A stretch of 64,000 nucleotides of DNA from Coraliomargarita sp. (GTDB taxonomy: Bacteria; Verrucomicrobiota; Verrucomicrobiia; Opitutales; Coraliomargaritaceae), in assembly GCA_965216325.1 (NCBI GenBank), contig OZ244160.1, positions 2,272,001 to 2,336,000 on the forward strand, given 5' to 3'. The stretch's first letter is position 1; every line of letters begins with the position of its first letter. This document shows positions 794 to 6,837 of the stretch, in pieces. Position numbers and translations under genes: made by a program. The notes below the pieces were generated by a model. It was given only the letters and a program-made list of their open reading frames with translations, did not search any database and was not told where the DNA came from.

Positions 794-1516
794 TATGATC
801 GTAAAGAGGGGTGACGCAGGGCGCAGCCCTAGCGTTGCCCCTCTCGACTGGGTATGCCCGGCATGTTGTTAAAGTTATGGGGTGTAAGTCCCCTGTGAGT
901 ATGTCCAACATAACAATCAAATCACTAGTGAAGCACAAGGGCGAAGTCGTGAGGCTTTCGTCCGGAAGCAGTGTGGATCAAAGACATGAGCCGATGAACA
1001 AAAACGTCATAGGAGGCATGTGCAATGGGATGAGCGGGCCCAGGATCGCAAAGTCCTTTGGACCGGTTGCATGTGTAAATGGCGCGGTTGTGTGTCGACG
1101 GTTTAACAGCTTATCCGGGGAGGCCTCGAACTGTGGCTTGAGAGGGCTTCAATGTGCCAATCATCTCTCTGGCACGCCTGATAGTAATGTCAGGCGTATC
1201 GCAGTTGGAGGAGTCAGCAGACGGCATAGTAGCCGCGGAGACGAGCTTGCCAGAGGCAGGACGGACTCACGAAGCGGTGAAGGCCTGAAGTCGATCATCA
1301 TCGGGACTCATTCAGTAGACACGTCCATAAACGCCGACCGTAGCGCGAGGACCTCTGATCTCTGTTTGATACAGCTCGAAGATACGTCTACTTTTGTAGG
1401 CGCGACAACCGCCTTAAAACAGACTGCGTAGCACTGCGATCAGTCTGGCTGCGGACCCGCATGGCAGGTGGTGTGGGAGGTGGCGTCGGTAACGGCGTCA
1501 CCTACTCGATTTCTGC
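794..1516 (-). repeat. attC7 (794-851 plus 1511-1516), interrupted by intron 1
   Basis: Reconstituted minus strand GCAGAAC-CAGTC-GAGAGGGG...CCCCTC-TTTAC-GATCATA. Confidence 0.8.
852..1510 (+). mobile_element. ORF-less group IIC intron (intron 1), 659 nt, inserted in attC7
   Basis: 5' GTATGCCCGGCATG; domain I blocks shared with intron 2 (GTCGTGAGGC, GATGAACAAAAAC, GGGAGGCCTC); DV/DVI-like end GGTGGTGTGGGAGG...TACTCGAT; removal restores CTGG|TTCTGC. Confidence 0.85.
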
Positions 1517-1956
1517 TCCTTTAGTCCCATCATGTAGAGCTTTCCCTCGGATACTCCTAAGACGTAGCTCCAGCCGGTTTTAGAACCATTCCCTAAAGGA
1601 AGCTCCTTCGAATACTTAACTTCAACCATTTTATATGGTGTAGGATTCGAGATGAAGGTTTTCCCTTCTAATTCTATGGGTTTGCTCATCCCTTCCTTCA
1701 TCGTTGGGTAGATTTCATGGAATCTGGATTCTCCGATGCCCTGTTCTTTTAATTCTTTTAGCCCATCTAGCGTCTGCGAGAAGAGTTTCGGTGGTGTGTC
1801 TTGCACTAGCCAGATGCTATCCAGCTTCCCTTTTGAGAAGTCGCCTTGCTGTATGAACGCTTTAAATCGCTCAAGGAATTCTGTTTCCATTTTCTCTGAT
1901 GCGTAGCCGCTCAAAGAGATTAAGACTGCGGTGAGGGTGATTAGGATGTGTTTCAT
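1498..1956 (-). CDS. Cassette 7: secreted hypothetical protein
   Basis: 152 aa, signal peptide-like N-terminus; stop codon lies inside intron 1. Confidence 0.75.
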   Translation of the reverse strand: MKHILITLTAVLISLSGYASEKMETEFLERFKAFIQQGDFSKGKLDSIWLVQDTPPKLFSQTLDGLKELKEQGIGESRFHEIYPTMKEGMSKPIELEGKTFISNPTPYKMVEVKYSKELPLGNGSKTGWSYVLGVSEGKLYMMGLKEQKSSR

Positions 1957-2015
1957 ATTCTTTCGCAGAACGTCGAGGATGAGCGACGGCGTAGCCGTTG
2001 CTCAATCCGGCTGGG

Positions 2016-3921
2016 GTGTGCCGAGCATGCGCTCGATGTAAAAGTGGTTAAAGTCTGCTATAGTAAGAACCTAATCATAAAATGAAAGAACTATTACCAG
2101 ATGCCAAGGGCGTTGTCGTGAGGCAGGGTCTGAAGGAAGGCTATGGGAAAGCTGCGAGCTGATGAACAAAAACTGCATAGAAGGCCGACGTGGTCTGGTG
2201 AGCTGGCACCACACAGCGAAACCGCTAGGTTCAGCCACGCAGGTAAATGCAGCAGTTGTGCAGCGGAGCATCGAGTGCTTACCTCGGGAGGCCTCAGCGA
2301 GTGGCATGGGTTGGCTTAAAGGTGTCAGTCAAGCCCATGCACCTGAGTCAGTAATGACACAGGCGGCACTGGTTGAGGAGTCAGCAGCGAGCATAGTAGT
2401 CATGGAACCGCGAGCCATGAGTAGGTCGATAGGCCGAAGAGCATGGAGGTCTCGAACGTGATGAAGGCTCAAACCGTATATGGGCAGTCCGACCCGCAGG
2501 CAGGTTCACCTCTCACTGGCACAGACCCGTGTCGAGAGCTGGGCGATGTTTGTGCAGGGAAGCATGGGGCTGCCGAGCAAGAACTACTGGAGTTGATGCT
2601 GGACCGCGCTAATCTGAACGCAGCTTGGCGGCGTGTGCGCAGCAACGGTGGAGCTTCTGGCATCGACGGTATGTCGATCGAGGACTTTCTGCCGTTTGCG
2701 CGCGAGCACTGGTCACGGATCGAGACTCAACTGAAAGAGGGAACCTACCAGCCAGCCGCGGTGCGCCGCGTCTGGATACCGAAGGACAATGGGGAGAAGC
2801 GCCCACTGGGCATCCCCACGGTGTTGGATCGTGTGATCCAGCAAGCCATCGCTCAGGTAATTGCGCCGATCTTTGAGGCACAGTTCAGTGAGCACAGCTT
2901 CGGCTTTCGTCCAGAACGCCGAGCCCATGACGCAGTCAAGTCGATCCAAAGCGCAGCCGCCAAAGGTCACGTGTACGCGGTCGATTGTGACCTGAAGTCA
3001 TTCTTCGACACGGTCGATCATCGTGAATTGATGCAGCGTCTAGCGCGCCGGATCAAAGACGGGCGCGTGCTGCGCCTGATCCACCGCTACCTCAAGGCAG
3101 GCATCCGCTTGCCTGATGGCAACACCGAGGCAACCGCCGAGGGGGTGCCACAGGGGGGACCGCTCAGTCCGCTACTGGCCAATATCATGCTCGATGACCT
3201 CGACCATGAACTCGAACAACGCGGGCACCGTTTCGCACGCTACGCCGACGATTTTGTTATCGTCGTCCAAAGCAAGCGAGCGGCTGAGCGCGTGATGCAC
3301 AGCATCAGTGGCTTCATCGAAGCGAAGCTCAAACTGATCGTGAATCGCGAGAAAACGAAGGCGGGTCGGCTGACACAGTGCAGCTTCCTCGGATTCGTGA
3401 TCTCGCCCAAGCGTATCCGCTGCTTGGATACCAAACTGCACACGTTCAAGAAGACCATCCGTCAAATCACCTGTCGCAGTTGGGGCATCTCCATGGAGGA
3501 ACGCCTCGAACGTCTACGACTGTATGTGAATGGCTGGCTGGGTTACTTCGCTATCGGTGTGCCGTTCAAGGATATCCGCAGCATGGATCAATGGCTACGA
3601 AGGCGTGTGCGCTTGTGCTACTGGAAACAGTGGCGTTTACCGCGCACGCGCTACCGCAAGCTACGCGCGCTTGGGATCAACCCGAAGACGATTAAGCAGG
3701 CTAGTCGTTGTCGAAAAGGCTACTGGCGCTGCAGCAAACTGCGAGTGGTCAGTATCGCGATGAACAACCAATGGCTCGCCGAACAAGGCTGCCCCTCAAT
3801 CAAAGAACAGTGGCTCAAACTCTGCTATCCAAACGGATAGCTCTAACGGAACCGCCGTGCTACGGAGCCGTATGGCCGGTGGTGTGGGGGCGGGAGTCAG
3901 TGATGGCTCCCGCTACCCGAT
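2016..3921 (+). mobile_element. Group IIC intron with RT/maturase (intron 2), inserted in attC6
   Basis: 5' GTGTGCC; DV GAACCGCCG...CGGTGGTGT with CGC triad; DVI ending ACCCGAT; RT ORF inside. Confidence 0.92.
2443..3840 (+). CDS. Group II intron reverse transcriptase/maturase without endonuclease domain (start may be 2461 or later)
   Basis: RPLGIPTVLDR, GVPQGGPLSPLLANI, RYADDF and X-domain motifs. Confidence 0.95.
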   Translation: MEVSNVMKAQTVYGQSDPQAGSPLTGTDPCRELGDVCAGKHGAAEQELLELMLDRANLNAAWRRVRSNGGASGIDGMSIEDFLPFAREHWSRIETQLKEGTYQPAAVRRVWIPKDNGEKRPLGIPTVLDRVIQQAIAQVIAPIFEAQFSEHSFGFRPERRAHDAVKSIQSAAAKGHVYAVDCDLKSFFDTVDHRELMQRLARRIKDGRVLRLIHRYLKAGIRLPDGNTEATAEGVPQGGPLSPLLANIMLDDLDHELEQRGHRFARYADDFVIVVQSKRAAERVMHSISGFIEAKLKLIVNREKTKAGRLTQCSFLGFVISPKRIRCLDTKLHTFKKTIRQITCRSWGISMEERLERLRLYVNGWLGYFAIGVPFKDIRSMDQWLRRRVRLCYWKQWRLPRTRYRKLRALGINPKTIKQASRCRKGYWRCSKLRVVSIAMNNQWLAEQGCPSIKEQWLKLCYPNG

Positions 3922-4217
3922 TCTATATTTTCATTTGAACCATCGGGTAAGATCTTAATTGCTCGAAAGCCACTCCAACAAAGGCTTATCACGATGGCCG
4001 AGGTGATCGCTGTGATCAATGCATTGGATATGGCTTTCCCAATGATGAGACCTTTCATTTCTTTCGTTAGATCAGGTTCAAACGAAGACAACTCAGCATA
4101 AGCTTGAAGTAACCCTCCAGTTATGAAGTAGCCGAAAACGAAAATCGCGAACAACAGAACCCCTTTAGCTAGAAGGCAGAAGGCGACTTTTATCGTTCTG
4201 TTAATTTCTTTTTTCAT
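3897..4217 (-). CDS. Cassette 6: small two-TM membrane protein
   Basis: ATGAAA start just after core site; two hydrophobic helices; stop lies inside intron 2. Confidence 0.7.
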   Translation of the reverse strand: MKKEINRTIKVAFCLLAKGVLLFAIFVFGYFITGGLLQAYAELSSFEPDLTKEMKGLIIGKAISNALITAITSAIVISLCWSGFRAIKILPDGSNENIESGSGSHH

Positions 4218-4220
4218 TCT

Positions 4221-6177: not shown

Positions 6178-6186
6178 TTTTCTTTC

Positions 6187-6257
6187 GCCGAACGTGAAGC
6201 ACTATCGCGAGTGAAGCGCGGAGCGCGAAACGAGTTGATAGGTGCGACTGGATATGT
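6187..6257 (-). repeat. attC1
   Basis: ACATATC-CAGTC-GCACCTATC...GATAGTGC-TTCAC-GTTCGGC. Confidence 0.82.
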
Positions 6258-6260
6258 CCT

Positions 6261-6656
6261 TCATTCTCCGTAGGCTACATAGAGCGTATAACCTTCGACG
6301 GTGCAAAGCTTCTTTAGATCATCTAGGAGTTTCCAGTGGGCACCAGCATAAGCTTTCGGGGTGGCTGTGCTAATGAGTATTTTCTTTTTCGAATTGAGTG
6401 AATCGGATGCTCTGAGAACCTCCTCCACAGTTTTAACACCCCAGAAGGGTTCTTTCAGTTCTTTCTTTTGGGCTTCGATTAGCAGAAACTTGGGCGGCTC
6501 ACCAGAACCATCAAAATAGTCTGCTGCAGGATTCCAAGTCGGGTTCAAGAGGTAGTGAACTGCTCCTTTTGTTTCTTCCTTACCTGCAGATGCAGCTACG
6601 GACTGAAGCAGAACTCCGATTATGCAAAAGCTGATGACTGTAATTTTCTTCCACAT
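6261..6656 (-). CDS. Cassette 1: secreted hypothetical protein
   Basis: MWKKITVISFCIIGVLLQSVAA signal peptide; ATG lies within junction G|ATATGT. Confidence 0.72.
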   Translation of the reverse strand: MWKKITVISFCIIGVLLQSVAASAGKEETKGAVHYLLNPTWNPAADYFDGSGEPPKFLLIEAQKKELKEPFWGVKTVEEVLRASDSLNSKKKILISTATPKAYAGAHWKLLDDLKKLCTVEGYTLYVAYGE

Positions 6657-6837
6657 ATCAGTGTTATGTAGTGCATTCAATGCACGTTTAGCTGTTTTTG
6701 GGATTTGTAAAAAACTTACGTTTTTTGATTTAAGTGATCTTGTTAGGGTGCGTTACTGTACTAGTAGAGGCGGATTGGGATCGAGTCATGGTTTTGAGGT
6801 AAGTCAAAATGTGAAATGGCGGCAAGGTTTGTTTCCT

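Follow-up and report, generated by a model that had tools for sequence, protein, structure and literature searches.

What is the array of small genes that separates slyX from hemY, and how did it come to stand there without an integrase? Within the window, i.e. the whole 64-kb stretch of DNA that was analysed, positions 794-6659 hold seven cassettes on the minus strand, flanked by slyX (578-790; PF04102) and hemY (6942-8354; Amino_oxidase). This is an integron array without its own integrase and invaded by introns, a new example of a well-known kind of element. With high confidence we read the region as the cassette side of a sedentary chromosomal integron that keeps attI and lacks its own intI, i.e. 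an attI-retaining CALIN. An earlier note on this DNA had described seven small minus-strand ORFs between slyX and hemY, each closed by a 55-71 bp hairpin. All seven ORFs were located between these two genes. The hairpins are as described at five intact sites, while those of cassettes 6 and 7 turned out to be split by introns.

The cassettes are numbered from the hemY side. Cassette 1 (6193..6658) carries an ORF of 131 aa with a signal-peptide-like N-terminus (6261-6656) and attC A (6187-6257, 71 nt); its upstream junction is G|ATATGT. Cassette 2 (5734..6192) encodes 136 aa with one N-terminal hydrophobic segment (5767-6177) and ends with attC B (5728-5782, 55 nt). A homologue in congener G001 (G001:C46), with 65% nucleotide identity, lies outside any attC context. 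Cassette 3 (5342..5733; ORF 5363-5725, 120 aa) has attC C (5336-5392, 57 nt), and cassette 4 (4793..5341; ORF 4824-5333, 169 aa, lipoprotein-like N-terminus) has attC D (4787-4842, 56 nt) and the low-coordinate junction G|ATGGCT. The ORF of cassette 5 (4227..4792) codes for up to 181 aa with several hydrophobic segments (4247-4792) and is followed by attC E (4221-4277, 57 nt). Cassette 6 (1971..4226) bears a membrane-like ORF of 106 aa (3897-4217), whose stop codon lies inside intron 2, and the split attC F (1965-2015 plus 3922-3926); without the intron it measures 350 nt. Cassette 7 (800..1970), 512 nt without intron 1, bears an ORF of 152 aa with a signal peptide-like start (1498-1956) and the split attC G (794-851 plus 1511-1516). 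Its terminal junction, G|ATCATA, lies 3 nt past the slyX stop codon.

The G+C content of the cassettes is 0.42-0.47 vs 0.533 for the genome. No Pfam, NCBIfam or PADLOC family was found for any of the seven ORFs, and for the ORF of cassette 4 the protein atlas gave unnamed clusters only. A CrcB-like match to a cassette ORF was below threshold (18 bits vs a cut-off of 80) and was disregarded. The ORF of cassette 7 has 11 homologues in metagenome contigs (39-84% identity). As a sign of shuffling between arrays, a second copy of each of the seven cassettes was looked for in the genome, and none was found.

The boxes of the cassettes form a chain. The pairs listed in the earlier note are all present: each R'' box was compared with the junction upstream of its cassette, and 48 of the 49 letters are complementary. 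The lone mismatch in that list, ATAGAnC, is the letter directly beside intron 2 in attC F. Outside the conserved triplet the cognate pairs match at 28/28 letters, and the 42 non-cognate pairings match on average at 1.24 of 4. Thus the chain is far beyond chance; it is the pattern left by strand exchange at G|TT or G|AT. The sites are also chimeric, the outer six letters of R' belonging to the next cassette and complementing its R''.

Is the attC family itself unusual? The standard attC is described as R''(7)-spacer(5)-L''...loop...L'-spacer(5)-R'(7), 57-141 nt long, with a conserved AAC/GTT triplet (PMC3053210, PMC4889954). Here the layout is 7-nt box, 5-nt spacer, stem-loop, 5-nt spacer and 7-nt box, and the seven sites measure 55-71 nt, the spacer being 5 nt long on either side. 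The seven sites lie within 794-6257 with the bottom strand of all on the plus strand; the largest gap between sites is 2.2 kb, due to intron 2, and so stays below the 4 kb used for clustering. A single bulged base, variable in identity, occurs in six of the seven sites, site G being the exception. It belongs to the 3' arm of the bottom strand and lies 3 bp above the spacer. It was called by alignment and sequence reading for all six sites, and the minimum free energy folds agree for A, D and F. By the same reading a conserved T is found six letters upstream, bulged in site B and opposite G or A in others. The conserved T and the bulged base together recall a T-N6-G layout.

A covariance model built from the seven attC sites only (R1) gave 47 bits for attC A and 66.6 bits for attC B. 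Genome-wide it found 28 sites, all within six clusters. Three clusters abut intI genes, divergent as expected, and three have no intI, including the slyX-hemY array. Tested on a class 1 integron locus, R1 found the aadA1 attC as its best match (17.8 bits, E 0.0012); one other attC interval of this locus was weak (5.2 bits) and the third gave no match. Among the relatives searched, the attC family is present in 16/18 other genomes of the same taxonomic family and in 1/12 from the order's other families. The triplet is GTT in 5/8 junction boxes of the window and GAT in 3/8; genome-wide the uninterrupted boxes are GTT in 15/21 and GAT in 6/21. The term "non-canonical attC family" used in the earlier note is not supported, given the standard layout and length range, the bulged base at a fixed place and the recovery of the aadA1 attC by R1. 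The sole departure is the G|AT core, which represents a minority variant.

The earlier note had missed that group II introns of the IIC type, both antisense to the cassettes, interrupt two of the attC sites. Intron 2 (2016-3921, plus strand, 1906 nt) is of the group IIC-attC type and is inserted at GT|T in the R'' box of attC F; the intron of the aadA1 attC served as the reference for placing its end at 3921. The RNA matches Rfam RF02001 with 126.6 bits, plus RF01998. Its reverse transcriptase/maturase (2443-3840, plus strand, 465 aa) has RVT_1 and GIIM domains and no nuclease domain (TIGR04416, 399 bits). Five copies exist in the genome, with 99.4-100% identity, each directly after an attC stem. 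Intron 1 (852-1510, plus strand, 659 nt) is a group II intron without ORF, belongs to a second family and is inserted at G|TT in attC G. It matches RF02001 with 110.1 bits and RF01998 with 52.8 bits, and shares 79-85% identity with the ends of other genomic copies that bear a reverse transcriptase, itself 48% identical to that of intron 2. These copies likewise follow an attC stem.

Introns of the group IIC-attC type enter the bottom strand of attC and are oriented against the transcription of the cassettes (PMC3001079). Both introns of the array have group II domains and lie in the bottom strand immediately 3' of the stem and antisense to the cassettes, like introns of the S.ma.I2 type (Leon and Roy 2010, PMC3001079); with them intron 2 also shares a reverse transcriptase limited to RVT_1 and maturase domains, i.e. 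without endonuclease. Intron 2 is inserted at GT|T of the R'' box, exactly where the aadA1 attC of pVIM_Pse-KSS435 (NZ_MF564290.1) is interrupted by its own intron. Its closest plasmid homologue is the intron within the aadA1 attC of a class 1 integron, and the best plasmid matches of the reverse transcriptase (47-51% identity) include class 1 integron introns. Disparities nevertheless appear: the reverse transcriptase of intron 2 is only 49% identical to that of plasmid IIC-attC introns, and, unlike in class 1 integrons, a second divergent family, here as an ORF-less copy, uses the neighbouring phosphodiester bond (G|TT).

The introns also bear on whether the hairpins are integron sites at all. 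Every hairpin comes after an ORF, as ordinary intergenic repeats or terminators would, and the folds of sites A and E (2/7) are no more stable than shuffled sequence. But such repeats would account neither for the chained 7-mers nor for the homing of attC-specific introns, the same repeat family is found beside all three intI genes of the genome and is confined to arrays, and R1 matches the aadA1 attC. We therefore regard an origin unrelated to integrons as hardly conceivable.

The absence of intI from the window, claimed in the earlier note, was confirmed: none of the 15 genome-wide six-frame matches to TIGR02249 (E <= 0.001) falls inside the 64 kb. The first cassette and the hemY stop codon lie just 282 nt apart, with no integrase match, and the adjacent, divergent intI of a complete integron is lacking. 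The search for an IntI-type recombinase, extended to the genome, found three full integron integrases above the TIGR02249 cut-off. The nearest starts about 487 kb away, and all three are flanked by attC sites of the family seen in the slyX-hemY array. The assignment as a CALIN, an integron-type array with no intI nearby in the sense of Cury et al. (2016, as given in PMC4889954), thus stands.

The short interval towards hemY holds more than spacer DNA. An attI with an integron leader extends from 6660 to about 6885 on the minus strand, with the recombination point between 6659 and 6660; the earlier note had overlooked it. Positions 6645-6882 of the window are 87% identical over 238 nt to positions 2853293-2853530 of the genome, upstream of IntI_2854, and the leader is 81% identical to 558774-558974, at the end of another array without intI. 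The leaders of IntI_2854 and IntI_2766 are homologous as well. The homology begins exactly at the first cassette junction, and the attI is recognised by homology only, this junction being in register with the IntI_2854 leader. Palindromes mark the leader, GTGCATTCAATGCAC at 6672-6686 and GTGCATTCG...CGAATGCAT. They are specific to the locus: every locus repeats a variant of its own two or three times, and the halves co-vary. A sigma-70 promoter scan of 6500-7000 found none, and nothing is read into this result.

Since the leader is homologous to an attI linked to intI, the array was once part of a full integron platform and not a set of cassettes gathered at a secondary site. The latter would mean successive insertions by an IntI acting in trans at a GWT site ("attG"), at a locus that never had attI or intI. 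Both outer junctions are indeed of the G|AT type (GATATGT, 6653-6659; GATCATA, 794-800), and IntI1, whose consensus at genomic sites is GWT, inserts cassettes at such sites genome-wide (bioRxiv 10.1101/2022.09.11.507474). But G|AT cores occur also within the arrays linked to intI, as part of the 6/21 boxes given above, and about 225 nt of homology to intI-linked leaders, starting from the junction letter, is unexpected at a random site. Nor is the leader ordinary conserved intergenic DNA: the slyX-hemY interval of congener G002 shares nothing with 6660-6885. Insertion at such a secondary site is thus very improbable.

The own integrase gene being gone, the array is a CALIN that retains attI, and loss of intI is its most likely origin. 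The gene would have been deleted between the leader and the 3' end of hemY. No intI remnant was found in 6886-6941, and the three-frame translation of 6840-6960 gave nothing recognisable, so that a deletion in place is not distinguishable from a translocation of attI together with the array.

The slyX-hemY comparison among relatives proposed by the earlier note bears on this point. In congener G002, whose HemY is 83% identical, Ada and SlyX are followed by a single unrelated gene and then by HemY, and R1 gave no match at E <= 1 in the surrounding stretch that was fetched. In congener G001 an integron integrase (317 bits vs a cut-off of 265) lies convergent with hemY, at the spot that is empty here. 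This enzyme is 36-43% identical to the three IntI of the present genome and is without their N-terminal extension; for these reasons the G001 and slyX-hemY loci may be independent acquisitions and not one ancestral integron. R1 found no attC in the stretches fetched downstream of hemY in G001, G002, G003, G006 and G013. The G001 contig breaks off 290 nt upstream of intI, and its Ada contig within Ada, so any array of G001 would be unassembled. Within the same genus, G001:C2 also carries the leader of the slyX-hemY array, with no more of an IntI behind it than the last ~65 residues (TIGR02249 positions 249-315), and is, judged from its sequence, a deletion intermediate. Arrays that keep attI and have no intI number two in the genome, plus one decaying in a congener.

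Alternatively, the array and its leader could have been split or copied from a complete integron by rearrangement, through repeated introns, IS or attC sites, and have landed by hemY. Rearrangement is among the CALIN origins given by Cury et al. (PMC4889954), dispersed repeats occur inside the arrays (five copies of intron 2 and three of a 2.55-kb IS91-family element), and the leader has the 87% and 81% identical counterparts described above. But none of the seven cassettes is duplicated in the genome, and the leader is 13% diverged with its own palindrome variant, so any copy event must be old. Moreover a rearrangement that breaks an integron normally leaves attI with intI and not with the cassettes, and G001 has intI at the same hemY position. 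Synteny gave no clue to a translocation: the gene that G002 has between its slyX and hemY is absent from the present genome, and the genes beside the three intI are uninformative. One metagenome contig follows slyX up to position 803 and there passes into another attC-like sequence, i.e. an array starting from the same slyX boundary, although the joint at 803 was flagged weak (26-nt side, 90% likeness). Taken together these points make rearrangement rather unlikely, and we retain the loss of intI.

Among public sequencing runs, the contigs of the isolate run matched the array without difference over the pieces compared, and no recombination product was seen in them; such contigs cannot show rare excision circles or variants. 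Metagenome contigs cover the flanks, intron 2, pieces of attC and the leader, for which one contig starts exactly at 6659. The cassette ORF stretches 5401-6000 and 6301-6600 are without metagenome cover, a gap that is not evidence of absence.

How would such an array work? The locus comprises attI and the leader followed by seven promoterless cassettes, which would be transcribed on the minus strand. Cassettes may still be excised by attC x attC recombination on folded bottom strands, with IntI supplied in trans, and new ones could be inserted at the retained attI by the same supply. The likeliest enzymes would be the IntI_2854/IntI_2766 pair, in view of their homologous attI leaders. As far as the sequence goes, recombination in trans is plausible. 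The two sites split by introns are presumably disabled, which would lock cassettes 6 and 7 in place. The introns may home to the single-stranded attC hairpin and, being antisense, probably impede read-through to the last two cassettes.

CALINs were defined, and their possible origins proposed, intI loss among them, by Cury et al. (2016, PMC4889954), in whose account intI pseudogenes lie near only 15 of 279 CALINs. The slyX-hemY array resembles the elements described there in its clustered attC sites (at least two) on one strand, with no intI within 10 kb, in the obscure function of its cassettes and in the presence of complete integrons in the same replicon. It differs from typical CALINs, as presented there, by keeping attI and a leader whose homologues belong to a complete integron of the same genome, which gives direct grounds for arguing that intI was lost or separated. 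With the ilvD-linked integron of Xanthomonas outlined by Colombi et al. (2025, PMC12444791) it shares a fixed chromosomal site beside a housekeeping gene, a homogeneous lineage-wide attC family, repeated lineage-specific loss of intI and mostly obscure cassettes. In contrast to that system the host group is another one and three intact intI are kept elsewhere in the genome; the intI of Xanthomonas is usually left as a pseudogene in that account, whereas nothing of intI is left at slyX-hemY.

It is also conceivable, though we think it unlikely, that attI arrays without intI are working satellite platforms, loaded and unloaded by integrases ~0.5 Mb or more away. If so, the leader palindromes would be recognition or control elements assigning a platform to its integrase, and the G|AT cores would be regular substrates of this integrase lineage.

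With the loss of intI as the preferred reading, the locus offers a clean, datable case of CALIN origin, attI and the leader surviving and the integrase gone, documented by one congener with a half-deleted state and another with an intact integrase at the same chromosomal spot. The understanding of integrons is unchanged, and their known behaviour is extended to a little-studied host group, whose lineage-wide attC family tolerates both G|AT and G|TT cores and has been colonised by two parasitic families of attC-homing introns.

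The G000 genome of the source Coraliomargarita is a single contig of 3.06 Mb. Seven small ORFs, all on the minus strand, lie between slyX (578-790) and hemY (6942-8354, minus strand), and an adenosine deaminase fragment (1-447) is found on the slyX flank. At 484-566, separating slyX from the deaminase gene, there is a small palindromic repeat with a 30-nt core that has 15 further copies in G000 and several each in the congeneric genomes G001 and G002; contigs of public-run assemblies break or join at this repeat. The cassettes, numbered 1 to 7 from the hemY side, have a G+C content of 0.42-0.47, for 0.533 in the genome and 0.61 in hemY.

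Intact attC sites belong to cassettes 1 to 5 (sites A to E: 6187-6257, 5728-5782, 5336-5392, 4787-4842 and 4221-4277). Read on the plus strand, which is the cassette bottom strand, they share one layout, i.e. NNNN(A/T)AC, a 5-nt spacer, an imperfect stem-loop, a second 5-nt spacer and G(T/A)TNNNN, and their stem-loops carry a conserved GCCGTTGC motif. When the seven sites are folded as single-stranded DNA, five are stabler than shuffled sequence (z -2.1 to -4.4) and sites A and E are not. From the alignment and the sequences, a single bulged base is placed on the 3' arm, three pairs above the spacer, in 6 of the 7 sites (visible in the MFE folds of A, D and F), with a conserved T six letters upstream. 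This pair recalls the two one-sided extrahelical bases described for canonical folded attC bottom strands (PMC3053210).

The chaining of boxes that the earlier note claimed for the seven cassettes is borne out: the 7-mer that bounds a cassette upstream and the inner box of the same cassette's attC are reverse complements at 48 of 49 letters, the sole mismatch (“ATAGAnC”) being the letter that adjoins intron 2. Outside the conserved triplet all 28 letters match the cognate box, against an average of 1.24 out of 4 across the 42 non-cognate pairings. This chain is the mark of circular cassettes inserted by strand exchange after the core G.

A six-frame search with TIGR02249 placed none of its 15 matches to integron integrases within the 64-kb window, as the same note had stated, and the array is a CALIN (an attC cluster without integron integrase) by definition. 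The search of the whole genome for IntI-like genes, which that note had proposed, gave three full-length integrases (at about 0.81, 2.77 and 2.85 Mb; 358, 357 and 340 bits for a curated cut-off of 265), each beside an attC array of the same family. All three (2853703-2855016, about 2766100-2767437, and 811172 to about 812560) have an extra N-terminal stretch of about 125-170 residues before the SAM-like domain, which reads MKT[IV]HFPRWAEVL... in two of them; residues 1-125 of the 2.85-Mb integrase, the one scanned, have no Pfam match. The extension is common to the integrases of G002 and of the relative G003.

A covariance model built from the seven window sites alone finds at least 28 attC sites in G000, a lower bound because 150 of about 500 candidates were scored in a first-pass filter and the search covered all but 24 kb of the genome. 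Every one falls within six clusters: three beside and, as expected, divergent from the intI genes, the window array, an array at 550-558 kb and a small cluster at 1.30 Mb. Applied without filters to a class 1 integron locus, the same model gives its top score to the aadA1 attC (17.8 bits, E 0.0012); of the two other attC intervals, one is matched weakly (5.2 bits) and one is missed. The observation of the earlier note is confirmed and its interpretation stands in part: the array does lack an integrase, but its attC family is not non-canonical in architecture. Lengths of 55-71 nt, boxes, spacers, bulge and variable loop are as in the published description (PMC3053210, PMC4889954). What sets the family apart is its core triplet, with GAT in place of GTT in 3 of the 8 junction boxes of the window and, genome-wide, in 6 of 21 uninterrupted inner boxes, including those of arrays adjoining intI. 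Since both chain partners agree, these GAT cores are original and not later mutations; GWT is reported as accepted by IntI1 at genomic sites (bioRxiv 10.1101/2022.09.11.507474). Among 18 other genomes searched of the same taxonomic family, 16 contained the attC family; among 12 searched from other families of the order, one did. It is thus lineage-wide.

The 282 nt that separate the first cassette from the hemY stop codon are informative about the origin of the array. Over 238 nt, the segment 6645-6882 shares 87% identity with G000 2853293-2853530, located in the stretch that separates a first cassette from the start of an intact intI gene, and it is 81% identical to 558774-558974, where another array that lacks intI ends. 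In all these leaders, and more weakly in a third integron, the similarity begins exactly at the final letter of the first cassette (...C|AGTGTTATGTA...). By this homology, the window array keeps attI and most of the leader, a feature that the earlier note had overlooked. The platform lacks the integrase gene and, at the far end of the leader, roughly 100-170 nt. Assembly of the array at a secondary site is therefore highly improbable, the homologous leader speaking against it. That attI and the array were instead translocated together from another integron seems to us possible, if rather unlikely. The favoured explanation is that of a sedentary integron platform that lost its integrase.

In each attI leader a palindromic motif occurs two or three times (window 6672-6686, 6845-6877 and 6901-6912; matching places at G000 2853300-2853650, 558780-559080 and 2765715-2766090, and at 9440-9830 of L038, a stretch of G001). 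The half-site is locus-specific: TGCATTC in the window, CGGACTC at 558 kb, TGCACTC at 2.766 Mb and TGGACTC in G001:C2. It is uniform within a locus, except in the 2.854-Mb leader, which mixes two types. These palindromes may be protein-binding sites or hairpins evolving in concert at each locus.

We then compared the locus among relatives. In G002 (HemY 83% identical), Ada, SlyX, one unrelated minus-strand gene and HemY follow each other within 650 nt, and the slyX-hemY interval contains no attC and nothing leader-like. In G003, neither slyX nor attC is found in the 5.2 kb downstream of hemY. G001 (HemY 85% identical) has an integron integrase convergent with hemY, precisely where it would be expected in G000 (L023:1459-2346, i.e. 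G001:C110:6958-7845; 295 aa, TIGR02249 317 bits, 30 nt from the hemY stop); the contig ends 290 nt upstream of this gene. This integrase is of a short type, 36-43% identical to those of G000, G002 and G003, and lacks the N-terminal extension, so that its position next to hemY does not establish a common ancestry of both platforms. A second G001 locus is an intermediate of intI deletion: a leader homologous to that of the window is followed directly by a C-terminal IntI remnant (L038:9269-9832, i.e. G001:C2:77268-77831; last ~65 residues, TIGR02249 positions 249-315, 76 bits). The breakpoints of this locus and of the window differ, indicating independent deletions and no site-specific event. 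On the cassette side of this G001 leader lie an IS3-like orfA and then the contig end.

In public sequencing data, an isolate run shows zero differences from the array over the contig pieces compared. In three marine or algal metagenome runs, contigs cover the array flanks at 90-99% likeness, as well as intron 2, the leader and short attC pieces set in unlike sequence. One 224-nt contig starts exactly at 6659, another runs from slyX to 803 and continues into other attC-like sequence, and the cassette ORF stretches 5401-6000 and 6301-6600 have no cover. These short contig joints hint at a cassette content that varies at a fixed boundary.

The chain makes seven cassettes, as first proposed, but two group II introns splitting attC sites had escaped notice. 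Rfam domains are found on the plus strand at 943-1109 and 2112-2277 (RF02001) and at 1173-1285 and 2340-2427 (RF01998). Intron 2 (2016-3921, plus strand) encodes a 465-aa reverse transcriptase/maturase (RVT_1 and GIIM, TIGR04416 399 bits) and has five copies in G000, 99.4-100% identical, each beginning directly after an attC stem. Intron 1 (852-1510, plus strand) has no ORF and is a relative of a second intron family, the full copies of which encode a reverse transcriptase 48% identical to that of intron 2. Both are antisense to the cassettes, intron 1 splitting the attC of cassette 7 and intron 2 that of cassette 6, as published for group IIC-attC introns (PMC3001079). The closest plasmid-borne reverse transcriptases are 47-51% identical, and one of them, on NZ_MF564290.1, lies inside the aadA1 attC of a class 1 integron. 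From junctions compared with the latter, the insertion points in the inner box are GT|T for intron 2 and G|TT for intron 1, one bond apart. In behaviour the window introns resemble the group IIC-attC type of class 1 integrons. In cassettes 6 and 7, the ORFs end on stop codons inside the introns (3897-3899 and 1498-1500), from which it follows that the insertions probably altered both C-termini. Natural C-terminal ends in homologues reach a few codons into attC, and the tail of the metagenome homologue P0011 resembles domain V of a group II intron read in antisense.

Outside the window, a 2.55-kb unit in three copies (99.6% identity; G000:C1:2841892-2844445, 815791-818344 and 1299778-1302338) carries a tyrosine recombinase gene (PF00589) and, after it, one for an IS91-family transposase (Y2_Tnp and Zn_Tnp_IS91). 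Each copy opens at GTTGAAC, immediately past an attC stem, and closes with its own attC-like hairpin, preceded by GTTCAAC and antisense to the cassettes. The unit is either an IS91-like element targeting attC sites or an unusually large cassette.

None of the seven cassette ORFs matches a family in Pfam, NCBIfam or PADLOC, and by eye all seven translations have an N-terminal hydrophobic segment, signal-like or membrane-like. The ORF at 1498-1956 has 11 homologues (39-84% identity), all on short metagenome contigs, and is on this account a real conserved gene of unknown function. The cassette-2 ORF (5767-6177) has a 138-aa homologue in G001 (L039:3734-4150, contig G001:C46; 65% nucleotide identity), within a tight same-strand run of small ORFs whose stop and start codons overlap. 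The window-derived model finds no attC around it; a congener thus has a relative of the cassette-2 gene that is not part of any cassette.

The cumulative GC skew of G000 goes up from 0 to about 1.05 Mb, down to about 1.8 Mb and up again to the end without closure (+80,622), which implies replichores of very unequal length or else a strong strand bias of non-replicative origin. Provided that the skew is a product of replication, the array has its attC bottom strands on the lagging-strand template.

Loss of the integrase is route iii to CALINs in Cury et al. (PMC4889954), who already count Verrucomicrobia among the integron-bearing phyla; among the matches listed by a full-text literature search, no work is devoted by title or abstract to verrucomicrobial integrons. 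A close parallel is the ilvD-linked integron of Xanthomonas, in which intI has been inactivated repeatedly and in a lineage-specific manner (PMC12444791). In the Coraliomargarita array, the two intron-bearing attC sites would be inactivated, cassettes 6 and 7 being predicted unable to excise singly, and attI and the five intact attC sites would stay open to integrases encoded elsewhere in the cell, which may act on this array in trans.
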